A stretch of 64,000 nucleotides of DNA from a virus: the IMG/VR virus record IMGVR_UViG_3300034025_000120, positions 1-64,000 of that record. One strand, written 5' to 3'. The translations under genes were made by a program, and so were the position numbers. The notes below the pieces were generated by a model. The model was not told the origin of the DNA, ran no database searches, and saw nothing but the letters and a program-made list of their open reading frames with translations. Of the stretch, positions 2,412-50,504 are shown piece after piece; position 1 is the stretch's first letter, and the number at the start of each line of letters is the position of its first letter.

Positions 2412-3515
2412 ATGGCAACAAACGAAAACGAAGTACGAACCATTGTTCAAAATGTCGAGCGGATTCTCGAAGAAACCGGCCACAGTGCTATCCCACAAAT
2501 CTTGTCTGGCGTCACGATCATCCCTGAGGCCGAGCGAGTAGTCATCGAGAAAGCGATTGTCGACTGGGCGGTTCGCCTGATGCGCCAGCCCGGCATGTTC
2601 ATCAACTCCGACCGGGATTCTATTATCCTCAGCGAGAAGGGGTTGGAAATCGCGACAGCTTTTAAAGAGTATGTCGCTCTAGGCTTGCCTAACCCATGGG
2701 AAACTAATCTCAGTGAGCGGGCGATCGAGAATTTTCGCCACCTGTCGGCCCAAGGGAAACTGATTCAAATGAAATCGGAATTCGCCTTTCCTCCGCCACA
2801 CGTGATTCCATTGCCGAACAAAGAGATGTCGGTAAGCGACCATGAAGTTGGTACGAGGAACGGCATGCTGCGCGACCTCGATCCACCGCGTCTTTACAAC
2901 ATCCCGAAGGAGGGAAGCGAAGATCGCGTCGAGTATCACTTCGGTCCACGGGCATTTACGGTAAGCGATAGTCGTCGTCAAATGTTCGCCAGCCACCTGT
3001 CGGAAGCCCGCTGTGACGATCGGTACCTAGTTCTTAACGAGCACGGCAAGCTCGTTAAGAATGGCAAAGAGTGGCGTGATACCAGCAAGTATGCCAAGCG
3101 TCTGAACAACAAGCGCAAGGGGTCGCGCGTGAAGACGGTCTTCCCGCGCAGGAATCCCGTCCGGAAGTGGGGTGAAGTCGAATCCATCTACGCCAACCCG
3201 TACCGCTACACGAAACGCCGCTTCAGCGGCAAGGTCGTGATCGACGGTCAGACTGGTGGCTACGCTATCACGGAAAACCGGCTGATCCATCGCGTCACCT
3301 TTCAAGATCACTTGCAAGCACCGAGTGGTTCGATGCGCAAAAAAGCAAAATACCGCTCCCGCATCGTCAATACGTTCTGGACGCATAATCCGTACGCCCG
3401 TGTCGTCAAGGCGATTCTTGACCTCGAAGCCTCGCCGGGCTACACTGCTCGTCACGCCGAGATCGTCAAGCAGTTAGAGGCCGCCAAACCAACCCGCAGC
3501 AAAGAACCGAAGTAA
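2412..3515 (+). CDS. hypothetical protein with PSGSMRKKAK motif
   Basis: 367-aa ORF with AGAGGGA RBS. Confidence 0.65.
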   Translation: MATNENEVRTIVQNVERILEETGHSAIPQILSGVTIIPEAERVVIEKAIVDWAVRLMRQPGMFINSDRDSIILSEKGLEIATAFKEYVALGLPNPWETNLSERAIENFRHLSAQGKLIQMKSEFAFPPPHVIPLPNKEMSVSDHEVGTRNGMLRDLDPPRLYNIPKEGSEDRVEYHFGPRAFTVSDSRRQMFASHLSEARCDDRYLVLNEHGKLVKNGKEWRDTSKYAKRLNNKRKGSRVKTVFPRRNPVRKWGEVESIYANPYRYTKRRFSGKVVIDGQTGGYAITENRLIHRVTFQDHLQAPSGSMRKKAKYRSRIVNTFWTHNPYARVVKAILDLEASPGYTARHAEIVKQLEAAKPTRSKEPK

Positions 3516-3551: not shown

Positions 3552-4373
3552 ATGAGCATCATCTTTACCGCCATCGCCGAAGACATGGAAGAACGCACTC
3601 GCCGCGAGCAAGCCGAACAAGAGCAGGCCCGTACCTCGATCCACAACATCGTCAGCCTCGATGACTTGTGGAAGTTCCGCACCGGACACGAGCAAGAAGT
3701 CCTGATGCGCGAAATTAAGACTAACGCGGGTGTCCGTCTGGCCTGGCGCATTGTCAACCGCATCGAACGCGCCGAACATCTGGTGCGCGCCTACGACCAC
3801 ATCATGACCACGATCATCGAACCGTCGACCGGCAAACCGATGTTCGAAGAATCGATCGACGTCGATGGCGGCGTATCAGCAATCCTGATCGAAGCGGCCA
3901 GGTTCGACTTCATGGACAACATGAACTTCGACAATGAATTCTCGCTGATGGAATTCGTGCTCACCCACGAAAATCCACTCTTCGTCTATGAGTTCATGGA
4001 CAACTTCATCCACAATGTCCTCGGCACCATCCTGGCGGGCGATACGGCCGCTGAGCGTCAAGCAGCTTTCCGCGAAACCATGGAACAGCCTGCGGCGGAA
4101 TTCATGCGCTTGGCCATCGATGCTTATCTCATTTACCTGAACGAGCAGAAACAACGTTTCAATAGCTCGCGTTACGGCAACGACGTCCTGCACACTGAAC
4201 CGCAGCAAGATTCACCGAATTCGCCGGATGCATCGACCGAGGCACCACCAGCACCGGCAGAACCCGGCCATACCGTCGCGACAGCCGAACCTTCGGTCAT
4301 CATTACCGATCCGAATGCTACGATCCATGTGAACGCGGCGCCGGTCGAAGCAGCGCAACATAAACCAGAGTAA
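3552..4373 (+). CDS. hypothetical acidic protein
   Basis: 273-aa ORF with AAGGAG RBS and GC3-rich codon use (casts an antisense shadow ORF). Confidence 0.7.
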   Translation: MSIIFTAIAEDMEERTRREQAEQEQARTSIHNIVSLDDLWKFRTGHEQEVLMREIKTNAGVRLAWRIVNRIERAEHLVRAYDHIMTTIIEPSTGKPMFEESIDVDGGVSAILIEAARFDFMDNMNFDNEFSLMEFVLTHENPLFVYEFMDNFIHNVLGTILAGDTAAERQAAFRETMEQPAAEFMRLAIDAYLIYLNEQKQRFNSSRYGNDVLHTEPQQDSPNSPDASTEAPPAPAEPGHTVATAEPSVIITDPNATIHVNAAPVEAAQHKPE

Positions 4374-4387
4374 TTATTAACACAACC

Positions 4388-4418
4388 GGAGTGAGTTATG
4401 AAACTCACTCCTTTCTTT
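4388..4418 (+). terminator. rho-independent terminator
   Basis: GGAGTGAGTT / AACTCACTCC 10-bp stem followed by TTTCTTT. Confidence 0.6.
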
Positions 4419-4529
4419 GGAGAATCCCCATGTAGATTCACTCCGTGTCTTTTTCAGCCAGTACCCACGTAGACGTAGCATCGTTACCAAGTCGGTAACC
4501 TGTATGAACCCTTTTAGGAAGGAAGTATC

Positions 4530-5252
4530 ATGGACAAGAATCAACTGATCGAACAGCAAATGGATGACTTCGTGGCCCTGTTCCACAGCATCGACAAAAC
4601 CATCTCGTTTAACAAAACCCACTGGCACGGCGAAAAGGGTTCGCTCCACGGCCTGATCCATAACGAAGAACACCGTCTGATCATGGAGCACGGTGAAATG
4701 GCCAAGGTGGTTGACAACTTCAACCGCAAGATCGTCCTGTTCGGCACCCACTTCGGCATCATCGCCGTCTATCCGACCCAGCCCCAGCCAAGCCGAGGCA
4801 GCATCCCGACTCTGTCGTACTGCACCACCCAAGCACTCAGCGACGCCATCGCTACACGCTTCCCGACCAGCCTGGCCGTATCGGCAAAGCTGATCGACCG
4901 TGAACATTTCCCCTTCCTGAAACCAACCGAGCTGTTCGGCCTGATCGACGAGCTGGCCACCTACTGCCGCGATCGTCATGTCTATGTCGGCGACGGCCTG
5001 CCAAAGCCCAAGCCCATCGTCAAGAAGTTCAAGCAACGCACGCACTCGAAGAAACCGGCTGAAGCAAAACCCAAAGCTGAGCAAAAGCCTCAGCAGCCCA
5101 AGTTGGGCCATAAATCCAAGAACCAAAAATCGCACCAGAAACAACCGCAACAAACCAAACCGGAAGAAGTAGCAAAAGTCCCGATGATGCAGGTACAGGA
5201 AATTACCCCTGAAATGCTGGCTTCGCCGGACGCCATCGCCCTCGCTGCCTAA
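4530..5252 (+). CDS. hypothetical protein with basic K/P/Q-rich C-terminal low-complexity tail
   Basis: 240-aa ORF with GGAAGGAAG RBS. The tail reads KKPAEAKPKAEQKPQQPKLGHKSKNQKSHQKQPQQTKPEE. Confidence 0.7.
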   Translation: MDKNQLIEQQMDDFVALFHSIDKTISFNKTHWHGEKGSLHGLIHNEEHRLIMEHGEMAKVVDNFNRKIVLFGTHFGIIAVYPTQPQPSRGSIPTLSYCTTQALSDAIATRFPTSLAVSAKLIDREHFPFLKPTELFGLIDELATYCRDRHVYVGDGLPKPKPIVKKFKQRTHSKKPAEAKPKAEQKPQQPKLGHKSKNQKSHQKQPQQTKPEEVAKVPMMQVQEITPEMLASPDAIALAA

Positions 5253-18058: not shown

Positions 18059-20017
18059 ATGATCAAAGACGAAAACACCCAATCGACCGCGATGGGCCAA
18101 GCACTGAGCAATGCCGGCGCCACCGGTAAAGCAGCAGGTCAAGCACAGCCGGACAACAGCCACGCCGCTTCCGCCGGCTTCAACCCGACCGCTACCCCTA
18201 GCGGCAAGCCGATGGGCTTCTCGTCGCTGGGCTTCGGCATCGATGCACCGATTCCGCTGAACAACACCGGCGAAGTGCTGACCAGCTTTCAGCGCGCGAT
18301 CCAGACCCTGCTCGACAGCTACAAGCAAGACACGAGCCCGGTCGTCACCACCCTGATCCCAGTCGAACGCAACGACGGCGTGACTAACCTGCCGGTGTCC
18401 TACCTGATCGTCTGCACGCAGCTGCGCAGCAACAAGGAAGCCGGCGTCGGCTACCAAGCACTGATCATCGAAGGCTCGATCGACCAAATCCTGACCACCG
18501 AAGAATACGTGCCTGGCGCCCCTGGCGGCAAAGTCACCGTCGAACGCACCGCGGCCGATGCCGATGTCCCGAAAGTCCGCGAAACCGTCAACAACCTCGT
18601 CAAGGCGCGTTTCCAGACCGAAAAGGTCTTCCCGGCGATCGCCATGGTCGTGCCGAAGAACTTCACCGAAAACCTGACCGATCCGCAGCGCGTCAAGAAC
18701 CTGACCGCCCGCGTCACCTACGCCGCATCGCTGGCCCTGCACATCGGCGCCGGCCTGGTCAAGCCGCTGAACCTGAAAGAATTCATCGGCGGCGGCGATG
18801 CTCTGCAAGCCAAACTGAGCTTCGATTCGCGTTCGGTCCAGAATGTCTTCAACATGCCAGTCGCCTCGCATGCCAAGATCGACCTGCTGTCGGAACCGGT
18901 CGCCAAGTCGGAAGTCCCTGGCTTCGGCTCGGGCGGTAGCACCAAGCTCGCGACCATCTCGGCCGTGCTCGACGTGATCTACCAACCGAAGACGCCGTCG
19001 ACGTCGGTGGCCGGACTGCCGATGTTCGGTACGCCAACGGCGGACATGTACAAGAAGTTCATCCCGCGTGTCGTGCTGACCATGCTGCAAGCTGATCGCC
19101 TGATGACTCTGGGCGGCCAGATGCTGGCCCTGGCAGCAGCCGTGTCGATCCGTGAACGTGGTCTGTGGATGGGTATGGCCCTGCCGCAGCGCGATGTTCC
19201 TGCGAACGAAATCGATCTGCGCGACTTCGGCGTGCTGAACCGGGAAGTGAACTTCGGCGGCGATCCAAGTCAGCCGGGTGCACCGCTCGACATCAAGGCC
19301 GACTCGTTCACCAACGGTCACCTGATGACCTACCTGAAAACCATCTTCCACGATGGCAATCCGGTGTTCGCGGTCGACGTCTCGCTGCGCGGTCCTGACA
19401 CGTCCTACAACGGCGCCCTGGCAGCCGCAGATGATGGTGATCCGGGCGCTGAAAAGGCAGTCTTGAACGCGCTCAACATCATGACCAATGGCGAATTCGC
19501 TCGTCGCTGGGTCGAAGGTACGCCGGTGACTCTGCGCAAAGGTGAAAACATCCACCTCGGCCACTACACCAAGCCCAACGGCGAAGTCGTCGATCTGCGT
19601 ACGCTCGACAACTACATCGCGGTCCAGAACCTGGCCGGCGGCTCGGCACCTGATCTGGTGCGTGATTACTCGGACACCTACCTGAAGACTTCCTACCCGG
19701 AAGCCCAACGGATGGCGGCCCGTCTCGTGATCCTGCGCAAGCTGGCACCGAACCTGGTCATCACCGGCACCGCGCGCCGTGTTTCGTTCCACGGCAAGAC
19801 CATCGATACGCTGGTCGAAGCGATGGCAGCAATCCAGGCATCGATCCCGGTCACCGGCAACACCTACGTCGATACCGGTACGGCAGATCGCGCAGTCGGC
19901 GACTTCCTGTCCGGCCTGACCAGCGCCGATTCGTCGACCGTGTACAGCCGCCAGTTCGCCGGTGCTGCTGCTTCGGGCGCTGTCGGTGGCAACCAGTACG
20001 CTGGCGCCTGGCAATAA
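18059..20017 (+). CDS. candidate phage-nucleus shell protein (chimallin-like), assigned by synteny, size and expression bias
   Basis: 652 aa with extreme GC3 bias (casts a 668-aa antisense shadow ORF). Both termini are Gly/Ala/Ser-rich. It lies directly upstream of the RNAP beta-prime-N gene and is followed by a strong terminator. Confidence 0.5.
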   Translation: MIKDENTQSTAMGQALSNAGATGKAAGQAQPDNSHAASAGFNPTATPSGKPMGFSSLGFGIDAPIPLNNTGEVLTSFQRAIQTLLDSYKQDTSPVVTTLIPVERNDGVTNLPVSYLIVCTQLRSNKEAGVGYQALIIEGSIDQILTTEEYVPGAPGGKVTVERTAADADVPKVRETVNNLVKARFQTEKVFPAIAMVVPKNFTENLTDPQRVKNLTARVTYAASLALHIGAGLVKPLNLKEFIGGGDALQAKLSFDSRSVQNVFNMPVASHAKIDLLSEPVAKSEVPGFGSGGSTKLATISAVLDVIYQPKTPSTSVAGLPMFGTPTADMYKKFIPRVVLTMLQADRLMTLGGQMLALAAAVSIRERGLWMGMALPQRDVPANEIDLRDFGVLNREVNFGGDPSQPGAPLDIKADSFTNGHLMTYLKTIFHDGNPVFAVDVSLRGPDTSYNGALAAADDGDPGAEKAVLNALNIMTNGEFARRWVEGTPVTLRKGENIHLGHYTKPNGEVVDLRTLDNYIAVQNLAGGSAPDLVRDYSDTYLKTSYPEAQRMAARLVILRKLAPNLVITGTARRVSFHGKTIDTLVEAMAAIQASIPVTGNTYVDTGTADRAVGDFLSGLTSADSSTVYSRQFAGAAASGAVGGNQYAGAWQ

Positions 20018-20111: not shown

Positions 20112-21407
20112 TTGGGCGTTGGCGTTGAGCTTGAAGACTTCGATAACTTGTTTCGACTTCACAACCGCAGGACCAAGGTCATCTTGAATGATTTGCGGAA
20201 TGCAACCGAAGAAGACCGCAAGAATATCGAGAAGCTTTTGTGCACCCGGTACGACTCCACTGACTTTCTTTCTAATATTCCGTCGTGCGGCTGTGGTGAA
20301 ACCACGGGTGCATATGCGGAAGGGTTGGTGGGCTTCTTGTGCCCCAAGTGCGGGACACACGTAACAAACCAGTTGGAACAGGACTTGGAACCCTTGGTCT
20401 GGATGCGCGCACCAATGGGTGTCGTGGCCTTGCCGAATCCGAATTTCTGGAGCATGCTCTTGGAGCGCTTCAAGTTAAAAGGATTCTGCGTGATCCAGTA
20501 CCTGTGCGACCGGACCTACAAAGCATCGGTGAAGTTCCCACAAGAGCTGCCCCAGATCGATGCACTGGTGCGAACCATCATGAAAGAGCGCGGGTACAAC
20601 AACTTTGTCAATAATTTCGATGCGATGATGCGCGGAATGTTGGCATTGAAAGTGTTCCGTAAAGGCACCAAGAAGCGGGAAGAATTTGATGCATTCCCGA
20701 TCCTGATCCAAGAATCGCGCAAAGCATTGTTTGCGCAACATCTTCCAGTCCCGAACCGCGCCTTGTTTGTGCTTGAAAACACGAACCTCGGTGAGTACGG
20801 CGACATGACGATGAATGGACTCATCAATGCCGTGAACATGATGACCAACATCGATTCTGACTTGAGCGGTTTGAAACCGGCCAAGAAAGAAATCCTGACG
20901 GTCAAGATGCTCAACAGCCTGTGCACTTTCTATGACGATATCTACCGGGATCGGTTGTCGCCGAAGGAAGGTTGGTTCAGGAAGCACGTGTTTGGTAGTC
21001 GTTCGCACTTCAGTTTCCGTGGCGTGATTGCTTCGTTGACGGGTCGGCACGATTACGACGAGATTCATGTCTCGTGGGGGATTGGGGTATCGGTGCTGTC
21101 CTTGCACCTGACCAACAAACTCCTGAAGATGGGATGGAACAATTACGAGATCAACAATCTCTTGTACGAGTATGCCCAGAAATGGCATCCCGTGCTCGAC
21201 CAGTTGTTTAAGGAACTGATTGCAGAAAGCCCGTACAAGGGTATCCCTGTGATCTTCCAGCGTAATCCATCACTGGAACGTGGTTCGGCGCAAGCCATGT
21301 TCATTACGCAAGTGAAGGGGTCAGCAGTACGACCGCAAGATGCAGAAATCCCCACTGTGTCGATGTCGATCCTTAGCGTTACGGGTTTTAATGCCGATTT
21401 CGATGGT
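20112..21407 (+). CDS. multisubunit RNAP beta-prime N-terminal subunit, exon 1
   Basis: TTG start after AGGAG. Zn-ribbon CGCGETTG...CPKCGTH is present. The exon ends at the catalytic motif FNADFDG, after which the frame degenerates. Confidence 0.8.
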
Positions 21408-22807
21408 AAAGTAACAACATTGCCATCGCTAAACTTCTTTAACTGTCTGGAACACCCTGAGAGTCTTGTCAACCACAACGCGGTGCGAAAGCACGATCGT
21501 GACGGTTTGAAAATGACAAGGATTGGGAAACCAGCAGCCAAGCCTCTGTTAAATGAGGAAGGTTCAACGACTATCGAAACCACCCGCAAGGGACAAGGGA
21601 GTAGAGTAGGGTACCAAGCGGACCCGAAACGGGAAGCACTCTTAACAGAGTGAAGATATAGTCTCAACCGGTATGAGAGTATCGGAAGTCATTGTCTGGA
21701 CCACAATGACGGCTAGGGTAGCGCCTAGTAGCTTCTACTAACTTAAAGGAGAGTAATGAATAGAAAACACATTCCAGGAACCACTGGCTTTCAAGCCGAC
21801 AGAGATGGCAACATCTACGATGCATTTGGTAGGAAACGCAATACCTACTTAAATGGGGACGGATACGTTACTGCATCGGTTTATACTAACGACGGTCGTT
21901 GGGTAACTTTCGGTGTACATCGGCTGGTGGCATTAGCGTGGTTGGGCGATAAGCGCGGTCCTGGGTGTGATGAAGTCAATCACCGGGATGGTGATATCAA
22001 GAATAACCGAGTTGAGAATTTAGAATGGGTAACATCCAGTCAGAATAACATCCATTCCGAAATCATGAGACGCTGCAACATTTACCCCACGCTCATGGTG
22101 GAATCAAATGGTGTTGTTAGATTGGCCAACGATGCTTGGGAAGCGCAAAGTTTCACAGGTGTCAGTGCACTAGACATTTGGGACGCCATTAAGGATGGAA
22201 CGGTGGTGCAGGGATTTAAGTTCACGCATTTTCCATACCGGACGAATATCCCAGCGCAGTTACATAAGCCCAAATTAGGTCAGCGCGATGTAAATGGCAG
22301 AATGATCGAACGGGCTATCAAGACGTTGGATATTGATACCGGTGAGATCGAAGTGTTCACTTCGTTTGCTAAAGCGGCTGCTAGATACAATACCACTGCT
22401 AGTCAATTGCATCTTGCCATTCCGCGACGTGGCGAAGTGCGGGTGTTTAGAAAGAAATACCAAGTCGAGTACATGGATCAAGATTTTCCAGAGATGACTC
22501 TGGAAGAACTGGCTCGTGCAAAGAATCGCGGACCACGGTCTGTACTGGCGTATAACACCGTCACAAAGAAGTATTCGATTTACGAGAGCGCCAAAAGTTT
22601 CATTGCTGCAAATGAATTAAGTAAGAAAGCAGTAACCACCTCCCTTGTGAAAGGGAAGTTGCGGCAGGTCGGCGACTGGGTGGCCGTGTATGTAAATACA
22701 GAAAACACAGAAAAGCTCAAAGAGTATGTGAAAGGTCCAGCGGACACGCACTCTTCCTGACAACAGTAGAAGCGATAAAAGCACAGCAATGTGTACAATG
22801 AAATTTG
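21408..22807 (+). mobile_element. group I intron carrying an HNH homing endonuclease ORF
   Basis: The 5' exon ends in U. The exon end GAUGGU can pair with intron GCCAUC (21422-21427) to form P1 with a U.G wobble at the splice site. The conserved core element AAGATATAGTC is at 21653-21663. The last intron nucleotide is G (22807). Joining the exons restores NADFDG-D. Confidence 0.8.
21756..22760 (+). CDS. HNH homing endonuclease (NUMOD4-like N-terminus, HNH, C-terminal HTH repeats), intron-encoded
   Basis: Motifs are HIPGTTGFQADRDGNIY and HRLVALAW...VNHRDGDIKNNRVENLEWVTSSQNNIH. GGAGAG RBS. It is more AT-rich than the flanking DNA. Confidence 0.85.
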   Translation: MNRKHIPGTTGFQADRDGNIYDAFGRKRNTYLNGDGYVTASVYTNDGRWVTFGVHRLVALAWLGDKRGPGCDEVNHRDGDIKNNRVENLEWVTSSQNNIHSEIMRRCNIYPTLMVESNGVVRLANDAWEAQSFTGVSALDIWDAIKDGTVVQGFKFTHFPYRTNIPAQLHKPKLGQRDVNGRMIERAIKTLDIDTGEIEVFTSFAKAAARYNTTASQLHLAIPRRGEVRVFRKKYQVEYMDQDFPEMTLEELARAKNRGPRSVLAYNTVTKKYSIYESAKSFIAANELSKKAVTTSLVKGKLRQVGDWVAVYVNTENTEKLKEYVKGPADTHSS

Positions 22808-23035
22808 GATCAGCAAAACGGCACGCTGTCGATTGACCACATGACGACCGAGCAATTGGGCCGTCTCGCACCACACATGAGCGCCTGCGGTTTAGATGGC
22901 GTCCGGACGCTTTCACGTAACCTGTCCATTCCGAAGACAGTGATCGCGACCATGGCCAACTGGCTGCATTGGGAAGAAGAACCATTGACGGAGGAACAAC
23001 ATCGCAAGATGGCGTTGATTCCGACTCTGGATTAA
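22808..23035 (+). CDS. RNAP beta-prime N-terminal subunit, exon 2
   Basis: Begins GAT CAG (D-Q), which completes NADFDGDQ (compare E. coli NADFDGDQM). 75 codons to the stop. Confidence 0.75.
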   Translation, partial: DQQNGTLSIDHMTTEQLGRLAPHMSACGLDGVRTLSRNLSIPKTVIATMANWLHWEEEPLTEEQHRKMALIPTLD

Positions 23036-23051: not shown

Positions 23052-23696
23052 ATGATGCAATCAGGTATGATGAGTCCAGGCATACTGGATGAGTTCAGTG
23101 TCATGGCCTATGCGCAAAAGAATGTCAATACGGTGCAGTTTCTGCAAAACCGGTTTCAAGATACGTTCGCAAATGCCAGTAACATCTTAACCGATGCGGG
23201 CAGAACGTTCTTTGAAACCAGCCGTAAAGCGTTCGAATACGTTACTGGTGCTGAAGCTGTACGCTTCAGTAATGGTGTGTTGCGCAAGGTCAAGAACATG
23301 TTTCAGCGCAATGAGTTCCGGGAATTGGATACCGTGGCAGAGGTACAACAGTCGCCCCAGGTCATGCATCGCTGGCTGATGGCGCAAGAGAATCTGCGAA
23401 CACTGTATCTGGACCAACGATGCTGTGGGTTTGAAGGGACCTACCAGAATCTGGACGGAAACGATGTGGGCCGTGAACACCGTGACTGGCGGTTGCTGAA
23501 CGACGGTCTGGTCCGTGATGACGCAGAACACGGCTGGGTACAGTCGTACTTCTGCGATGCACGGGAAGAACGCCCAGCGGTCGACTATGTCAATGCTGAC
23601 ATGAAGTTTACGGTCAGTTCGGCGTGGGATTTGATTGCCGGTGCCATTGAAGTGGGTGACGATGACCCAAGTTCGCCATTTGGCGACAAGCTGTAA
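23052..23696 (+). CDS. hypothetical protein
   Basis: 214-aa ORF with AGAGGAAAG RBS. Confidence 0.6.
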   Translation: MMQSGMMSPGILDEFSVMAYAQKNVNTVQFLQNRFQDTFANASNILTDAGRTFFETSRKAFEYVTGAEAVRFSNGVLRKVKNMFQRNEFRELDTVAEVQQSPQVMHRWLMAQENLRTLYLDQRCCGFEGTYQNLDGNDVGREHRDWRLLNDGLVRDDAEHGWVQSYFCDAREERPAVDYVNADMKFTVSSAWDLIAGAIEVGDDDPSSPFGDKL

Positions 23697-32789: not shown

Positions 32790-32867
32790 TAAGTGTAGTA
32801 GAACCACGAATTGGTATCATACAAAGAGTTTGTTGTTATAACACGAACGAAAAGGAAGACAACGAAA

Positions 32868-34091
32868 ATGCCATATGGACAAAATCCATCAGCACTGTAT
32901 CTAATCAAGCACGAACCCAACGAACTGCGGCGTGAGTTCTTGGGCGTATGCGCGCTTAATCCTTGGTTCGCCCACGATTCTTCGCCACGCCAGCAAATGT
33001 TTGCCAGCCACTTAGGGCAAGCACTGGTGTTCAAAGGAATCGGTCGCCGGTATTTCCAAACCGGCATGGAAAGGGAATACGGTAAATACACCTTCTCGGT
33101 CAAGATGCCCACCACAGGGGATGTCATCAAGATCGTTGAACGGTATCGTCGTGGCGTGAGTGCCAGTTCCATCAACCCACCCAAGTCACCCCAAACGATC
33201 CTCATCTACGAGGATTACCAAACCAAGGAAATCGGCTGCATCGATTTGCCGACGCATACTTCGAATCACCCGTATTTTGGTTTTGAATACCAAAGCACCG
33301 ACGCACTGCAAGACTTGATGTGCGGGAAGAAATCGTTTACCGAAGGCCAGATTTTCCTGGATTCTCCTGCAAAGGATAAGAATGGTAACTATGGCTTTGG
33401 CATGGAAACCCCGATCGCTTTCCTCTCGCTACCCGAAACATCGGAAGATAGCGTCTTGGTGTCTGAAGACCTGTTGCCGTTGCTGAAGTTCAAGGTCACC
33501 GAGCGGCGCACCGTGGAATGCGGCCGCGATGCGTTCCCGAAAGGGATGTTCAATTACATCGATGCCAGCGGCAAAGAAGTTTTCAAACCGTTTCCCGAAA
33601 TTGGCGAGTACATCCGCGAAGACGGGCTGGTCATGGCCACGACCCGGTACAACGAGAAGTCGGCGTTGTTTGAAATGGGGATCAACGATGTCAAGACCTT
33701 GAACATTCCGTTCGACCTGCCCTGCTACGCCACCGCGGGCAAAGGCAAGATCGTCGACATCAAAATCTGGCATGACCCGTACAACACGTCCGGGTTAATT
33801 CCTTTTGGCATGGAAGACATGTTCAAGAAGTACGATGGCGGCATGCGCGCCTTCTACTTGGAAATCTATCAGGAGTGGAAACGCTTGCACCGCCAACGCG
33901 GCGCAGCCTTGAAACTCAGCCCTGCCTTTAGTGCTTTGGTCGAAGAAGCCATCGCCATGGTGGGTGAGCACAAAGAACGGATTCACATGCATCGCCGGCG
34001 CAAACCGCTGGATGACTACACGATTGAATTTACGATCGAGTACGACGTGGTCCCGACCGAAGGCTTCAAGCTAACTGATTGCCATGGTGGT
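32868..34091 (+). CDS. multisubunit RNAP beta subunit C-terminal half, exon 1
   Basis: SSPRQQMFASHLGQA (compare bacterial NMQRQAVP). ETSEDSVLVSE (compare FEDSILVSE). The exon ends ...KLTDCHGG inside the HGxKG motif. The ATG at 32868 follows AAGGAAG. Confidence 0.8.
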
Positions 34092-35395
34092 CGACATTAA
34101 GTGAAGATTCATCCATCTCTTTGAAAGGAGGTGGACATGGTAGAAGAGGAATTTAGAGTTGTACCTGGTTATAAAGAATTCAGTGTAAGCAATGATGGAA
34201 TTGTTAAGTTATCGGAAGATAACTCGATAGTTACTTTGTACAGCACTGGAGGTTATTGGACATTTAGCTTACCCAGTAACTATTCAGGATCGACGTTGTC
34301 AGTGCATAGAGCTGTAGCATTGGCATGGGTAGCAAATCCTAATCCAAGTGAATTTAACATCGTCAATCATCTTGACGCTAACCCTGCCAATAATTGGTGG
34401 GGAAACTTGGAATGGACAACCTATTCAGGTAATAATTACCATGCTATAAACAATGGTTTAAGACCGGACAATATTCCCTGTAAAGTGCGAGACTTTATTA
34501 CAGGAGAAGTCTACGAATATAGTTCGATGGCACAAGCTGCCGAAGCCATGGGGTTGAGGAAAGATACATCCATTTATCAGTTATACCCGAAGATGTTTGG
34601 GAAACTGATCGTGAATCGTTATGAATTTAGATTTGCTAATGACTTCACGCCGTGGTTCTATGAAAGTAGAAAGTATCAGATTCGACCTGCACGCTATATG
34701 GTGATTGTTACCGATGTCGAAGAAAATACCAGGGAAATTTTCTCAAATGCGACATTGCTCAAGGAATATCAGCTGTACGATAGTCCAGGTAAGTCGATAC
34801 CAGCGTTAGCGGAACACGGGAACCAGATATATCCCCATTTGAAATTCAGTGTACGAGACAGTTATGCGGAGGAACGTTTCCGCGTGATGCGTCAAACGAA
34901 AGAAAGTCGATCAATGCCAATCAAAGCTAAAAGCGGAGAACGGACCATCGACTTTGGTTCACTGACTCAATGCGCTAACTACTTTAAAGTTGATCGATCC
35001 AGTATTACAAATCGTTTAAATAACGATAAGAATTTGGATGGATGGACCTTCACTCAGTCAGCCTCTTTAGCTAGTAATGGCTAAAGAAACTTCCTTTAAT
35101 TGACCGGAAATAACCTGAGAGCCTTGTACACCAAGCCAATACCAAAAGTATTGGTGGCCAGCGTAACGAACTGGGTATGGTAACAGAGACAAGGATTGGA
35201 GAACCGGCAGCGAAGCTCCCAACGGGAGAACGTTCAACGACTAAGACCTTACCAGTCTGTAGGATCAAGCGATCCGAAATGGGGAACACCCGAACCAGCG
35301 ATGGAGGGTGAAGACATAGTCTCGACATCCGGCTAACAGCCGGAGCTGCGCGTAATGGCGCGGGTTAGGTGTAGCGAACCTAGTTGAAGGTATCG
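34092..35395 (+). mobile_element. group I intron carrying an HNH homing endonuclease ORF (exact junctions inferred)
   Basis: The 3' part (35073-35395) shares blocks with the intron at 21408-22807: CCTGAGAG, GACAAGGATTGG, GTTCAACGACT and GTGAAGA(T/C)ATAGTCTC. The junction 34091(U)|35396, preceded by G at 35395, restores HGG-KGIICKI. I could not identify a P1 guide sequence. Confidence 0.7.
34137..35084 (+). CDS. HNH homing endonuclease, intron-encoded
   Basis: AGGAGG RBS. Motifs are FRVVPGYKEFSVSNDGIV (NUMOD4-like) and VHRAVALAW...VNHLDANPANNWWGNLEWTTYSGNNYHA. It is markedly AT-rich. Confidence 0.85.
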   Translation: MVEEEFRVVPGYKEFSVSNDGIVKLSEDNSIVTLYSTGGYWTFSLPSNYSGSTLSVHRAVALAWVANPNPSEFNIVNHLDANPANNWWGNLEWTTYSGNNYHAINNGLRPDNIPCKVRDFITGEVYEYSSMAQAAEAMGLRKDTSIYQLYPKMFGKLIVNRYEFRFANDFTPWFYESRKYQIRPARYMVIVTDVEENTREIFSNATLLKEYQLYDSPGKSIPALAEHGNQIYPHLKFSVRDSYAEERFRVMRQTKESRSMPIKAKSGERTIDFGSLTQCANYFKVDRSSITNRLNNDKNLDGWTFTQSASLASNG

Positions 35396-36331
35396 AAAGG
35401 CATTATCTGCAAGATCAGGCCAGCGCACGAAATGCCGGTGGACGAAGCAGGAAACCGGGCCATGATTGCGATGGACCCGAACTCGACTGTGTCGCGCATG
35501 AATATCGGACGGCTCTACGAGCAGTTCATGAATGCATCGCGCCGCGATACCCGCAAAGCACTGTCGGCCATGCTGGGCATCGAGCACCATGATCCAAAGG
35601 CGGTGGTCAAGGTCCATGAACTCCAGCAACGCGATCCTGCCACCTTTAACAAGGCGTGGGATTACCTGCTCGGGTTCTATAAGATCGTCTCGCCACAGCA
35701 GTACAACTGGCATGTCACCGGCGAATACCGCGATCCACCTGCGACCCATCTGGGCAAAGTGATTGCGGATGATCTGTTTGTGTTCTTGCCGACGGAGAAT
35801 GACCCAGAGTCGGAGCAAATCGTTCATGACCTGTGGAAGTATTATCCACCTACCTACGGCCCCGTGCAGTATGTGGGTAATTCCGGGAAGCTGCGTACTA
35901 CCCGCGAAAAGGTCATGATTGCTGAGATGTATGTCATGTTGCTGGAGAAGATCGGTGACGATTGGACGGCAGTGGCGTCTGGCAAGACCCAGCACTTTGC
36001 GGTGTTGTCGCAAATGACGAATGCGACCAAGTATTTGCAGCCGACACGCAATTCGCCGGTCCGGACTGACGGGGAAGCAGAGAAGCGCATCTTTGTCTCG
36101 TATTGCGGTTGGCAATTGGCATCGGAACGCCATGACCGGAATAACAACCCGGCCACGCACAAAGAAGTGACCTACTCGATTCTGACGGCCGATCGACCAA
36201 CAGACATCAAGTGCGCCGTGAACCGCAAGAAGAATCCGCTGGGCCAAGACCGTCCACTGGTCATGGTCAAGCACATGCTGCAAACCGGCGGTACCAAGGT
36301 CACCTATGAAGACGTGGGCTTTGTTCACTAA
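35396..36331 (+). CDS. RNAP beta subunit C-terminal half, exon 2
   Basis: KGIICKIRPAHEMPVDEAGNRAMIAMDPNSTVSRMNIGRLYEQ aligns by eye with bacterial KGVISKI..DMP.DE.G...DI.LNP.GVPSRMNIGQ. Confidence 0.8.
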   Translation, partial: KGIICKIRPAHEMPVDEAGNRAMIAMDPNSTVSRMNIGRLYEQFMNASRRDTRKALSAMLGIEHHDPKAVVKVHELQQRDPATFNKAWDYLLGFYKIVSPQQYNWHVTGEYRDPPATHLGKVIADDLFVFLPTENDPESEQIVHDLWKYYPPTYGPVQYVGNSGKLRTTREKVMIAEMYVMLLEKIGDDWTAVASGKTQHFAVLSQMTNATKYLQPTRNSPVRTDGEAEKRIFVSYCGWQLASERHDRNNNPATHKEVTYSILTADRPTDIKCAVNRKKNPLGQDRPLVMVKHMLQTGGTKVTYEDVGFVH

Positions 36332-41631: not shown

Positions 41632-41952
41632 ATGAGCGAACATAAGAACCAGCACCACGTCATCATCGATGGCCACGAACTGACGCCGCTGCAATCGAAC
41701 CATGTAGTGGAAGCCATTGAAAGCCAGCTCGGCAACTCTTTGGACGACATGTTCGATAGCGACGTTGATCCGTATCAAAAACAAACGATGGCGCCGGCAG
41801 TCAGGTCGCTGGCCGAAGTGCTGTATCTCGTGGCACCGCACATTCTGTTTGATGGCATTGAAGTCATTGGTGGTAAAGCCCACTTCGATGAAGAACTGGA
41901 AGAGTTCAATCCAGGCGGTACCGAAGAAGTCATCTATCCAAAAGACGAATAG
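41632..41952 (+). CDS. small hypothetical acidic protein, tandem array member
   Basis: 106-aa ORF preceded by GAGGAAAAGAAATG. N-terminus is HHVIIDGHELTPLQSNHVV. Confidence 0.55.
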   Translation: MSEHKNQHHVIIDGHELTPLQSNHVVEAIESQLGNSLDDMFDSDVDPYQKQTMAPAVRSLAEVLYLVAPHILFDGIEVIGGKAHFDEELEEFNPGGTEEVIYPKDE

Positions 41953-41954
41953 TC

Positions 41955-41990
41955 AGCATAAAAGCGAGGGGTTTCCCTCGCTTTTTTCTT
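41955..41990 (+). terminator. rho-independent terminator with AGCATAAA 5' flank
   Basis: AAAGCGAGGG-GTTT-CCCTCGCTTT followed by TTTCTTTT. Confidence 0.7.
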
Positions 41991-47302: not shown

Positions 47303-48136
47303 ATGCTCGAACTTCATCACCAGTTCATTGTGGAAAATACCACACCTGAACTCCAGGTAGCGATTACGAACGCCTACGCTATTTTAGTTACCATGGGTGC
47401 TCCTACCTTGGATGACAGCGTAGAAGAACTTATCATGCTCGATTCCACCGTGGAAACGGGCGTGACGGTTACTCGCATTGTGGAACTCATGCAGGACTTA
47501 CAACACGATATGCTGCGCCAGCATGAAGTTCGGTTGGTCGAGGGTGTGTCCTTGGCGGTGACCACCAACCTTTTGCAAGGGATTCTTTCTTTGCAGGAAT
47601 ATGAAGACATGGGCCGTCTCTACCAAATTACCACGGCTGACCAAGATGCGACCGAGACCTTTGCCCAAGCCATGGAACTCGTAACGCCTTACAATGCCGA
47701 TAACCTGTCCATTAGTTTGGAAAGCGTCGGCGGTAGCCTTATCCGCCGCATGCGTGAAATGGCTGGTACCCGCGAAGAAGAATTGGTCACCGACGAAGAA
47801 CGCATCGAGCGTGCCGGTTATGTCAGCAAGATCAACCAGTTCTGTCATTACACGCGTAGCCGCCATTACCGCATGGTTACGCTCTTGCAGTCGGGTTGGA
47901 GTGTAGGTTACCCCTATACCACCTATGCTGACAATGTTGGGCGTGAATTTGAAGGCATCTTGCCTGAACAAATTGCCAAAGAAATGATTCTGATGGCACT
48001 CGCCTCCAACGATGGTACCAAGAACCCACGGGCCGTGATCAAACCGAATTTGGAACGTTACATTGCCAGCATGAATGTGATCACCAAGGTCGATATCGAG
48101 GTGACGCGCCTGTTACAAGGATTTGAACATGGATAA
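47303..48136 (+). CDS. hypothetical protein
   Basis: ORF 47204-48136. The ATG at 47303 follows GGGAG. Confidence 0.55.
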   Translation: MLELHHQFIVENTTPELQVAITNAYAILVTMGAPTLDDSVEELIMLDSTVETGVTVTRIVELMQDLQHDMLRQHEVRLVEGVSLAVTTNLLQGILSLQEYEDMGRLYQITTADQDATETFAQAMELVTPYNADNLSISLESVGGSLIRRMREMAGTREEELVTDEERIERAGYVSKINQFCHYTRSRHYRMVTLLQSGWSVGYPYTTYADNVGREFEGILPEQIAKEMILMALASNDGTKNPRAVIKPNLERYIASMNVITKVDIEVTRLLQGFEHG

Positions 48137-49436
48137 GCGTACTTTTTTCTTGAAGGCCATGGCGGCCCAGGAATACCGCCGCCGGGCATGGGTGATTAGC
48201 GCCTTTAGCTTGATCAACGAAGGTGGTGATGCATGGAAGAAAGAACCCTATGCTTACCGCCTCGTCCAAATGCCGACTGGACATTTCTTTGTTGACCCAG
48301 ACAAGAATGGCGAATTGACCAAGATCGACGATACCAAAGCTGGTAGTGCACCTTTCTCGTTCAAGGACCGTATCCTCTTGAAGAAAGGCGACATGCCGAA
48401 TGTCTTCCAAGAGGTGGACACAAACTACGGCAATGTGTTATTGAACTACACGGTACTGGTCTATCCGTTTGGCCACAAAGTACCATTCGTGACAGGGCGC
48501 ATCAAGCCACGCCAATTGGAAAACATCGTCTTGGCACGCTTGGAAGATACACCGAAAGCTGGTGAAACACGGGACGACAAATACCTCTACGTCGATGAGT
48601 ACATCAACTTCGTCGATGCTGCCTTTGCAATGGTGGCGTACACCCAGTTATGCGTGCCAGCGGCCACCGAGAAAACCATGCAGCCTGCTGATGGTATTCA
48701 CGAATACCGCGACAAGCTCTTGGCTGAAAACAAAGACCGCCTGCATGACCCAGCGGTGATCGCCAAAATTGACGCAGCCCTCGTTCAGTATGACCGCGAA
48801 TGGCTCAAAGGTGATCCGGGTGAAAACTTCATGATTACCGATAAGTCGATGGCGATTGTGCGCAAACGCCAACACGGTATGTGGGGTGCGGAAGCGGGCC
48901 TATCAGAAAACATCAATGTGGATTTGATTCCCACATCACTAGGTGAAGGGTGGGACATCGATAAGTTCCCCCAGATGAACAATAGCCACCGCGCTGGTTC
49001 ATACAACCGGGGCGCCCAAACCATGCTCGGCGGGGAATCGGTCAAGTGGTTACTCCGTGCATCGTCGAACATCAACATCACAGTTGATGATTGCGGTACC
49101 AAGATGGGCTTGCCACTCCAAGTGGACAACGACAACATCGAGATGCTAGTGGGTTTCAGCATTGTCAGTAAACAAGGTCGAATCCGTATCCCCGATATGG
49201 ACACCGCCCGCCAATACTTGGGCAAGCGCGTCATCGTGCGTAGCCCGATGTATTGCAAGCTGACCTTGACTGACTACTGCAAATGCTGTGTGGGTGACCG
49301 CTTGGCAGCGAACCCAACCTCGGCGTCGACAGCAGTGGCCGGCTACGGAAGTGCCTTCTTGAACATTTACATGCAAGCTGGGCACGGAAAGAAGCTATCA
49401 TTGGCTAAATTCGATTGGAAGAAGGACATTTTCTGA
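48123..49436 (+). CDS. RNAP beta-prime-like fragment (second RNAP set), ending inside the trigger-loop-like motif
   Basis: DDCGT. VIVRSPMYCKLTLTDYCKCCVGDRLA. YMQAGHGKKLSLAKFD is paralogous to HMTQKSSQSVLSLKHLD of 36378-38489. The ORF stops 8 codons later. Confidence 0.65.
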   Translation: MNMDKRTFFLKAMAAQEYRRRAWVISAFSLINEGGDAWKKEPYAYRLVQMPTGHFFVDPDKNGELTKIDDTKAGSAPFSFKDRILLKKGDMPNVFQEVDTNYGNVLLNYTVLVYPFGHKVPFVTGRIKPRQLENIVLARLEDTPKAGETRDDKYLYVDEYINFVDAAFAMVAYTQLCVPAATEKTMQPADGIHEYRDKLLAENKDRLHDPAVIAKIDAALVQYDREWLKGDPGENFMITDKSMAIVRKRQHGMWGAEAGLSENINVDLIPTSLGEGWDIDKFPQMNNSHRAGSYNRGAQTMLGGESVKWLLRASSNINITVDDCGTKMGLPLQVDNDNIEMLVGFSIVSKQGRIRIPDMDTARQYLGKRVIVRSPMYCKLTLTDYCKCCVGDRLAANPTSASTAVAGYGSAFLNIYMQAGHGKKLSLAKFDWKKDIF

Positions 49437-49508
49437 TTAGTTTAGTGTAATTATTCACTTTAACCTCCCTATCTATATGTGTTAAACATTAAAATAGGGA
49501 GTTTTAAC

Positions 49509-50504
49509 GTGTCCGAAAAAATTGTCATTACTAAGCCAAAAGATTTCTACGACATTCCAGGCAATGACTTGGTGTGGATTGCTCGCGACGGTCGGTGCAT
49601 CAGAAAAGATAATGGAAAGAAAATCAAGATAACTCCGACAGGCGCGGGATATAGTGTTCTTTCTATTTATAGAAGGAATAGAAATGCTGCTAACTTTTAC
49701 CATCATCGACTGTTAGCGTTGGCCTTTCTAGAACGGCCACCACGCCACGCGGATAAGCCGTTTGAAGAATTAGAAGTCAACCACAAGGACGGTGACAAAG
49801 CCAATAATCGGTTGACGAATCTTGAATGGTGTACTCCAGAAGAAAATGTCGAACACGCCATCGCGCTCGGTTTGTACAAGCATGAATTTGTTTTGGCACG
49901 GGATATTCGAAGTAATTCCATTCGCCGCTTCATGGGGGCGCAGGGGTGCTCGGAAGCTTTTAGTACATGTCACAAGCGTATGCGCCGCCACCTGCGGTCA
50001 AAGCAGGCTGGTTACATTACGAAAGACTGGCACGTGTTTAAACTCGACGATGGATCGCCGTGGCCAGAATTGCGTGACGAGCATTATATCGAAAATGGTT
50101 GGACATACAAATTCGGTATTTGGGTAGCCACCAGTGTCGAAGTCTCGGGTAAGACCGTCATCGCATCGACCTTCCCACGACTCTGTGAAATTTTAGGCAT
50201 CTCCGCTACGGTAGCGCAGGTTACCATGCGAAATCGACCGAAGGGTACGCCATACATGAACTGGGTAATTGTGTATGATGAACTTGGTTTGGCGAATGCC
50301 GTACAGGAAGCACGTACCCATGCTGATCGTGTAATCTTTCCTCCGAAGGATGTCACTGTCAAGAATATCAATACTGGCGAGGTGCAGACTTTTGCCAGCC
50401 GTAACATCGCTGCCAGTTCTCTTGGACTTCACGCAGACAAGATTCGTTACGCCATGAAAGCCAAAGGCGGACGTATTGGCGACCTTCAGTTCACTGAAGC
50501 ATAA
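49509..50504 (+). CDS. free-standing HNH homing endonuclease
   Basis: GTG start after GGGAG. Motifs are [19 protein letters not shown] and HHRLLALAF...[28 protein letters not shown]. It is AT-rich, and no intron core motifs flank it. Confidence 0.8.

Follow-up and report, generated by a model that had tools for sequence, protein, structure and literature searches.

A probable mobile group I intron with an HNH endonuclease gene at the NADFDG/D catalytic motif of a chimallivirus RNA polymerase gene

Positions 1 to 64,000 of the IMG/VR virus record IMGVR_UViG_3300034025_000120 (this whole 64,000-nucleotide stretch is termed the window) carry at 21408-22807 what is very probably a mobile group I intron of an IA-like class. 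The element interrupts a chimallivirus gene for the beta'-N subunit of the non-virion RNA polymerase (nvRNAP), the enzyme that transcribes middle and late genes, directly before the codon for the third aspartate of the Mg-binding triad (NADFDG/D; the slash marks the insertion point here and below). Splicing would restore a subunit of 507 amino acids (aa), and an HNH open reading frame (ORF) within the intron would encode the endonuclease by which the element homes.

The original prediction, drawn from the letters of the DNA, had proposed a group I intron at this position, and a covariance-model scan of the whole window against Rfam bears this out. Family RF00028 (group I intron) matches positions 21377-21685 on the plus strand with 82.7 bits (gathering score 50, E 1.6e-19), covering model positions 1-253 of 253, and no other match in the window reaches the gathering level. 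The 360 nucleotides (nt) at 21396-21755, made up of the final 12 nt of exon 1 plus the ribozyme's 5′ part, have a fold z of -4.3 against dinucleotide shuffles. The predicted core element AAGATATAGTC is present at 21653-21663 and occurs as a single copy in the window.

When the ORF loop is replaced by GAAA, the minimum free energy (MFE) fold recovers P1, P4-P5 with the P5a-c extension, P6a, a GCAA-capped hairpin between P7 and P3′, P8, P9 with its GAGA loop and two further hairpins, as well as a 9-bp stem that closes the ORF and a GCAA-capped hairpin in the tail. P3, P6, P7 and P7.2 fall outside that fold and are our own helix assignments; the core helices as a whole are based on the Rfam alignment, MFE folds and covariation across 10 family members. 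P1 and P2 as drawn by Rfam are unreliable, with non-canonical pairs flagged, and the P1 of the original prediction is the correct one. RNAalifold additionally proposed a pairing of exon GACU with the 3′ strand of P7 and a GGUU/GACU hairpin; we regard both as artefacts and keep to the canonical P6 and P7. The two hairpins that we place between P7 and P3′ by their position suggest an IA-like class.

The reading frames on either side of the element behave as predicted. ORF 20112-21653 reads ...SMSILSVTGFNADFDG (that is, ...TGFNADFDG), with its last Gly codon, GGT, at 21405-21407, and then degenerates into 82 open codons of unrelated sequence that end at a TGA (21651-21653). The frame resumes after the HNH gene with GAT CAG CAA AAC GGC (D-Q-Q-N-G) at 22808, immediately preceded by G22807, which supplies the terminal G expected of the intron. 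The frame is kept when 21407 is joined to 22808, which yields the 507-aa product with NADFDGDQQNG at the junction, where the spliced sequence would be ...TTCGATGGT/GATCAGCAA.... An alternative junction, 21406/22807, encodes the identical protein but breaks both the rule of U at position -1 and the rule of a terminal G, and was rejected.

The spliced product matches PDB 7ogp_A (phiKZ gp55, the nvRNAP beta'-N subunit) across the junction with an E of 9e-81, and exon 2 corresponds to PHIKZ056.1 within that chain. The host gene is of the phiKZ gp55 type. A tblastn search with the spliced product matched 291 phage records, most of whose homologues are uninterrupted; one piece covers at least 80% of the product in 242 of them. 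An alignment with the homologues of Burkholderia phage FLC9 and Ralstonia phage RP12 and with PhiPA3 gp054 shows no gap at the junction, and both the NADFDGD loop (columns N-x-D-F-D-G-D) and the Zn-binding cysteines C59, C61, C77 and C80 are invariant.

The closest comparison is provided by two IMG/VR contigs, L010 and L011, whose beta'-N proteins are 93% and 83% identical to that of the window. Their gene is uninterrupted and exactly 1521 nt long, as against 1521 + 1400 nt in the window, and blastn finds no trace of the intron DNA in either contig. Because the spliced product is colinear with intron-less homologues, including these two, the splice junction is well supported. Gene order is also shared: chimallin, beta'-N, a gp59-like gene and the next ORF follow one another in all three, the window having chimallin (Pfam PF25677) upstream at 18059-20017 and a member of PHROG 3254, the phiKZ gp59 family, downstream at 23052-23696. 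The site itself reads ...GAC TTC GAC GGC/GAC CAG CAA... in L010 and L011 and ...GAT TTC GAT GGT/GAT CAG CAA... in the window, so that uninterrupted-site DNA of the L010 type and the spliced-window type can be written as AATGCCGAYTTCGAYGGY/GAYCAGCAAAA.

The nearest relatives of the HNH protein are found in the same gene of other chimalliviruses in all contexts examined (five GenBank phages and one IMG/VR contig). The GenBank phages are Erwinia phage pEa_SNUABM_54, Klebsiella phage Miami, Serratia phage Totoro, Pseudomonas phage HHBS47_1 and Vibrio phage 5 TSL-2019 (loci L005, L006, L007, L008 and L013; accessions MW879341, MT701590, ON287372, PQ287649 and MK358448), and the contig is IMGVR_UViG_3300020048_003360 (L012). 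In each, the exon 1 frame ends in NADFDG (NCDFDG in Totoro) and is followed by an intron, which like that of the window has a guide sequence of the type UUGCYRUC and the order ribozyme core, HNH ORF and a tail of 30-55 nt. Identity to the window HNH is 30-52%, the highest value being that of L012, and the exon 1 proteins of the host phages are approximately 26-49% identical to that of the window. HNH matches also occur in Pseudomonas phage HHBS8_1 and Vibrio phage USC-1, the same site having been seen directly only in the other five phages; Aeromonas phage PS1 shares the gene layout, but its locus yielded no such motif.

Sequence comparison among these introns provides further support for the splice sites. 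P1 was correctly predicted as GATGGT (21402-21407) with GCCATC (21422-21427): all six positions pair, with a terminal U.G at the 5′ splice site. Among the six same-site introns for which P1 and P10 were tabulated (the window, L005-L008 and L012), every one has a 6-bp P1 ending in U.G and a terminal G. P1 includes a compensatory change from U-A to C-G, the window having exon GAU with a guide A and the relatives exon GAC with a guide G. The Gly codon before the site is GGT in all intron-bearing alleles, which provides the required U, and is GGC in five of six intron-less alleles examined, RP12 having GGT. P10 comprises 5-6 bp in L005-L008 and tracks the sequence of exon 2 (GACGCU/AGCGUU, GACAC/GUGUU, GAUAUG/UAUAUU and GAUUC/GAAUU).

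At the 3′ end, the bases just before the ORF pair without a mismatch, over 7 bp or more, with bases in the tail just after it in all six introns; the sequence of this stem differs from one to the next (for example, GCCUCUC/GAGAGGC in L008 and GCUUCUA/UAGAAGC in L012). The tail hairpin covaries, with CACA/UGUG in the window and L012 and CGCA/UGCG in L008. An (A)ACAAUG box is conserved 5-19 nt upstream of the terminal G in seven of eight same-site introns (the window, L005, L006, L008, L012, L013 and L014) and is absent in Totoro. A role as start codon for exon 2 was rejected, since the box is in frame neither in the window nor in L012, and no pairing partner for it is consistent between members, the CAUUG adjacent to the guide and a strand of P9.1 having been tried.

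To count covariation in the core, we turned to another set of 10 members whose Rfam matches are cleaner, since a plain MAFFT alignment of the six introns found first is unreliable in the P5 extension and the P7.1/P7.2 regions. In a structure comprising P1, P3-P8 and the P5 extension, pairing holds in 96.7% of the cells, and both partners have changed in 28 of the 60 pairs. Controls in which the 3′ partners were slid by 1-3 columns gave 33-42% paired cells and 2-8 pairs with double changes, and in 500 shuffles neither the pairing nor the covariation score rose to that of the real alignment. P4 and P7 vary little or not at all and are hence uninformative for covariation. Because pairing and double changes exceed both the slid and the shuffled controls, the ribozyme fold is under selection in this family, and the window copy conforms to it. 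Hairpins equivalent to P9.1 and P9.2 are also discernible in the alignment of the relatives.

The HNH ORF sits in the loop of the 9-bp closing stem, 3′ of P9 and outside the catalytic core. It matches Pfam HNH_3 (PF13392) with 37.2 bits (cut-off 24.8, E 2.3e-9), PHROG 59 with an E of 6.6e-30, and I-HmuI (PDB 1u3e), the nicking homing enzyme of the SPO1 DNA polymerase intron, with an E of 5.7e-7. Residues N75, H76, D78, N83, N88, W91, N97 and H100 do not vary among eight homologues, one of them phiKZ gp56; H76, N83/N84 and N88 align to I-HmuI, and the protein is I-HmuI-like. Its length of 334 aa lies within the 319-334 aa of its relatives, and the Shine-Dalgarno-like element before its start has a counterpart, AAGGAGAAT, at the same place in L012. 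Nothing suggests decay of this predicted endonuclease, whose beta-beta-alpha-metal motif retains the catalytic His and the Asn residues. The original prediction called the HNH gene AT-rich; the AT-richness is only mild (46.9% GC as against 52.2% for the window). The features of the intron and its exons are listed in Table 1.

Table 1. Coordinates of the intron, its structural elements and the flanking exons in the window.
Feature	Position	Strand	Remarks
Exon 1, phiKZ gp55-homologue nvRNAP beta'-N gene	20112..21407	+	TTG start, 432 codons, ends ...GFNADFDG
P1 exon strand GAUGGU	21402..21407	+	U21407 is the 5′ splice-site U
Whole group I intron	21408..22807	+	1400 nt, starts after U21407, last base G22807
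Internal guide sequence	21419..21427	+	AUU 21419-21421, P10 strand; GCCAUC 21422-21427, P1 strand
P3	21434-39 / 21631-36	+	our assignment, within core 21434..21685
P4	21444-50 / 21531-36	+	our assignment
P5 and P5a-c extension	within core 21434..21685	+	GAAA-capped hairpin
P6/P6a	21537-46 / 21555-63	+	our assignment
P7	21569-73 / 21659-63	+	our assignment
P7.1	21583-92	+	GCAA loop; name is our assignment
P7.2	21609-25	+	name is our assignment
P8	21637-52	+	our assignment
J8/7 plus P7 strand, AAGAUAUAGUC	21653-63	+	part of ribozyme core
P9	21668-85	+	GAGA loop
P9.1	21688-21710	+	peripheral hairpin after P9, from MFE; name is our assignment
P9.2	21712-21729	+	peripheral hairpin after P9, from MFE; name is our assignment
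ORF-closing stem, 5′ strand GCUUCUACU	21731..21739	+	9-bp perfect complement at 22765-22773
Shine-Dalgarno-like AAAGGAGAG	21745..21753	+	ends 2 nt before HNH ATG; read from sequence
Predicted HNH homing endonuclease ORF	21756..22760	+	334 aa, HNH domain residues 53-98
ORF-closing stem, 3′ strand AGUAGAAGC	22765-73	+	within 3′ tail 22761..22807
GAUAAAA linker	after 22773, in 3′ tail	+	precedes tail hairpin
Tail hairpin CACA-GCAA-UGUG	22782-93	+	covaries in relatives
ACAAUG box	22795-22800	+	conserved in 3′ tail
Terminal G	22807	+	last intron base
Exon 2	22808..23035	+	GAT (third catalytic Asp) first; 75 codons and stop; DQQNGTLSIDHM...ANWLHWEE...

Taken as a mobile intron, the element would work as follows. 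In the pre-mRNA, exon GAUGGU would pair with guide GCCAUC and place U21407 in the U.G wobble, after which free guanosine would attack. The 3′ end would be drawn in by the long-range stem at the base of the 1-kb ORF loop (21731-39 with 22765-73), by the tail hairpin and by the weak 3-bp P10, so that the terminal G22807 could swap into the G-binding site and the exons be ligated, restoring ...NADFDG-DQQNG... and the 507-aa subunit. The unspliced product would have neither the third Asp that binds Mg nor the last 75 residues of the subunit, and the polymerase should be dead; it is sound to expect that polymerase activity would depend entirely on splicing. The HNH protein would be translated from its own start and ribosome-binding site, and by analogy with I-HmuI and PhiPA3 gp210 its most likely role is to nick NADFDGD-coding DNA that is uninterrupted in co-infecting relatives, whereupon recombinational repair would copy the intron into the nicked allele.

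Several observations count against an actively splicing and homing element. P10 of the window comprises only 3 bp (G.U, A-U and U-A); that of L012, which is nearest to the window by intron and HNH sequence, likewise has 3 contiguous bp. The open exon 1 frame of 82 codons crosses P3-P8, and ribosomes moving along it could disturb folding if translation is coupled to transcription. It may nevertheless be harmless, given that a protein shell separates chimallivirus transcription from the ribosomes (PMC12908238). As a meaningful feature the read-through was rejected: it is not conserved, because the frames of relatives stop at other distances, after approximately 5-10 codons in L006-L008 and L012 and later in L005 and L013. 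The residue before the catalytic His of the HNH protein is Asn, where I-HmuI has Asp. Furthermore, ONT-cappable-seq of phiKZ, under the conditions used, detected no spliced reads for the predicted introns of gp56, gp72 and gp179 (PMC10914365), and because of this in vivo splicing of the intron class is less well documented than assumed.

The long-read result in phiKZ also speaks for a truly split gene, with an unspliced RNA and two polypeptides. The first would end at 21653 and the second begin at the TTG at 22805, and they would assemble non-covalently like other RNAP subunits of jumbo phages. The beta and beta' subunits of jumbo-phage RNA polymerases (RNAPs) do occur naturally as separate polypeptides (PMC7598289), and the TTG opens a 76-aa ORF. 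However, no ribosome-binding site precedes 22805, the break falls inside the Mg-binding triad, and the gap is filled by a full, covarying ribozyme that obeys the splice-site rules, while the gene is uninterrupted in close relatives and in phiKZ the orthologue is used in fused form. To our knowledge no RNAP is split within this triad, and a split gene is very improbable here. Elements of other classes can practically be dismissed, be it an intein, a group II intron or a pseudogene disrupted by a free-standing HNH cassette: a free-standing HNH gene does exist elsewhere in the window (49479-50504), but this insertion is out of frame and has stops in the exon frame, neither intein motifs nor a group II match was found, group I is the sole Rfam family matched, and the host gene is essential and intact once spliced. 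The frame stops, the Rfam result and the homologue alignment already refute these candidates.

A ribozyme that splices while the HNH protein is inactive, either decayed or kept for another role such as aiding splicing, would make the intron a fixed and immobile passenger. This is suggested by the replacement of Asp by Asn in the D-H pair of I-HmuI, and by the absence of a near-identical intron copy from the phage collection, so that recent transfer is not demonstrable. Nevertheless, it is unlikely, as the N-H variant is common to the whole HNH clade, phiKZ gp56 included, the ORF is full length with all eight invariant residues of the HNH region and a good ribosome-binding site, and the patchy presence of the intron (in the window, not in L010 or L011) is as predicted by active gain and loss. 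A mobile group I intron with a working HNH endonuclease therefore remains the preferred reading.

HNH-bearing group I introns in chimallivirus RNAP genes are already known from phiKZ and PhiPA3, and the closest precedent is the gp55/gp56/gp56.1 intron of phiKZ. It lies in the orthologous gene, with chimallin upstream, and in the same catalytic loop; its group I ribozyme scores 75.6 bits in Rfam, and its HNH protein belongs to the clade of the window HNH with 21-23% identity (by alignment or tblastn). The two differ in position and layout. The phiKZ insertion is 15 nt upstream of that in the window (...KAPN/ADFDGD as opposed to NADFDG/D), and its HNH ORF is 5′ of the ribozyme core, whereas that of the window is 3′ of P9 in a terminal loop. 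PHIKZ055 ends in ...LKAPN plus read-through and is followed by PHIKZ056 (the HNH gene), the ribozyme and the resumption of the exon as ADFDGDQLN in PHIKZ056.1. The functional subunit of phiKZ is the spliced product: PDB 7ogp contains the fused chain of PHIKZ055 and PHIKZ056.1, and the cryo-electron microscopy paper on the nvRNAP numbers the motif of gp55 417-DFDGD-421 (PMC8287921). The phiKZ intron has been predicted since the genome paper; later studies credit introns associated with gp56, gp72 and gp179 to the phiKZ genome and transcriptome papers (PMC10914365, PMC11512511).

In PhiPA3, the HNH endonuclease gp210 nicks the intron-less allele of a co-infecting phage and confers a competitive advantage (Birkholz et al. 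2024, Science; PMC11620839). The link between such endonucleases and inter-phage competition, mentioned in the original prediction, is therefore correct, but it concerns another gene and site. Like the window, PhiPA3 has a group I intron with an HNH gene in a chimallivirus RNAP gene, beside conserved aspartates of the catalytic region; unlike in the window, the gene is that of the virion RNAP beta subunit, gp211/209 (phiKZ gp178), and the insertion follows two other conserved aspartates. The activity of gp210 is demonstrated, while the window HNH is known from its sequence.

Among phages of other groups, the I-HmuI intron of SPO1 encodes an HNH domain homologous to that of the window. The window protein is larger (334 aa as opposed to 174 aa) and its C-terminal part is unrelated. 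The T4 nrdD (sunY) intron resembles that of the window in layout, with its ORF near the 3′ end, the remote 3′ splice site being returned by long-range pairing. Both host genes, the SPO1 DNA polymerase and T4 nrdD (anaerobic ribonucleotide reductase) genes, differ from that of the window.

Neither the window intron nor its phage has a near-identical deposited relative, as megablast of 21300-22900 against 50,697 phage records gave no match. The same-site introns in GenBank are unannotated: exon 1 carries a read-through tail, exon 2 is a small "hypothetical protein" or missing, and in the Miami record the HNH ORF is not called. In the literature library searched, no paper combines DFDGD, a group I intron and a phage, and none was found to describe the G/D site, which is apparently widespread but undescribed.

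A search of IMG/VR with a DNA pattern composed of the guide sequence and the P3 and P4 strands returned 16 loci, 15 of which lie directly after xD[FY]DG in frame. In five of these loci (L015, L016, L018, L024 and L029) the 5′ signature of the intron follows SGDYDG, NADFDG or NADYDG in AT-rich, beta'-N-like genes with Zn-ribbon and NRNPT motifs, for which tblastn detected no similarity to exon 1 of the window. Because it is found in genes without such similarity, the intron family tracks the motif rather than the gene lineage. This suggests that the family has moved between very distant phage RNAP genes by way of the shared catalytic-motif DNA.

Other group I introns occupy neighbouring positions in the same loop. 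Xanthomonas phage vB_XciM_LucasX (MW825358.1) has an ORF-less intron at 2749-3153 (54.7 bits in Rfam) in the orthologous gene, 21 nt upstream of the window site (...LKA/PNADFDGD), and its exons are annotated as two hypothetical proteins, LUCX_60 and LUCX_61. On the minus strand of the contig IMGVR_UViG_3300030508_000018 (4620-5311), two adjacent introns (89.2 and 83.4 bits) lie on either side of a 20-nt micro-exon, UUAAUGCAGAUUUUGACGGU, coding for the (F)NADFDG part of the beta' catalytic loop; the first of them is inserted 20 nt upstream of the G/D site. Two further contigs carry multiple introns: L020 has two in its beta' gene, and L017 has two Rfam matches and a third locus that matches the pattern. 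Altogether at least four insertion points have been seen, 21, 20 and 15 nt upstream of G/D and G/D itself. A tentative and rather doubtful possibility is that several unrelated mobile introns of jumbo phages compete to insert into these 21 nt, which encode the beta' catalytic loop. In this case the window HNH would be a weapon nicking the nvRNAP gene of intron-less relatives of the L010/L011 type in co-infection, and an occupied site would protect against the nucleases of neighbouring sites. This possibility models the window HNH on PhiPA3 gp210, which acts against the virion polymerase. In a separate observation, L012 carries directly after exon 2 (4359-5066) a 235-aa ORF with a GIY-YIG-like N-terminus (...GYYIGIGNILRKRI...), which may encode another homing endonuclease of this locus, one that is free-standing.

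The immediate consequence for the window is one of annotation. The gene must be given as join(20112..21407, 22808..23035); unjoined, an essential polymerase subunit looks truncated and devoid of its third catalytic Asp, an error that recurs in several GenBank records of jumbo phages. Current understanding is unchanged, as the class, gene and mechanism are known and the element would not surprise a specialist. It adds the nvRNAP as a second polymerase among chimallivirus RNAP genes with HNH introns at catalytic residues, and splicing free of ribosome interference would make nucleus-forming phages an unusual bacterial setting in which to study such introns. These phages use polymerases and promoters of their own. 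The most useful leads are the clustering of several introns on codons of the catalytic loop and the natural intron-plus/intron-minus pair formed by the window and L010/L011, which is suited to the study of homing or interference competition.

The window also contains what appears to be a second group I intron, at approximately 34089-35389. Its ribozyme (35024-35343) matches RF00028 with 45.6 bits (gathering score 50) and an E of 6.2e-9, and its HNH ORF (34131-35084) encodes a 317-aa paralogue that is 5′ of the ribozyme core, a layout resembling phiKZ gp71/72/73. The element splits an RNAP beta-like gene between ...FKLTDCHG (ORF 32811-34100) and VSKGIICKIRPAHEMP (ORF 35384-36331), in the region of the bacterial beta motif RHGNKG. 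No P1 was found for this intron, and its boundaries were placed by the motif and the U/G rule. A third HNH paralogue at 49479-50504 (341 aa, 39% identical to the N-terminal 100 residues of the HNH protein encoded from 21756) follows ORF 48123-49436; no Rfam group I match at E<=1 lies nearby, and it is apparently free-standing. Lastly, 41920-41989 gives a weak Rfam match (28 bits as against 45, E 0.48) to the alphaproteobacterial small RNA ar9. The matching segment consists mainly of a GC hairpin and a U-run, and is most likely an intrinsic-terminator-like hairpin matched by chance.

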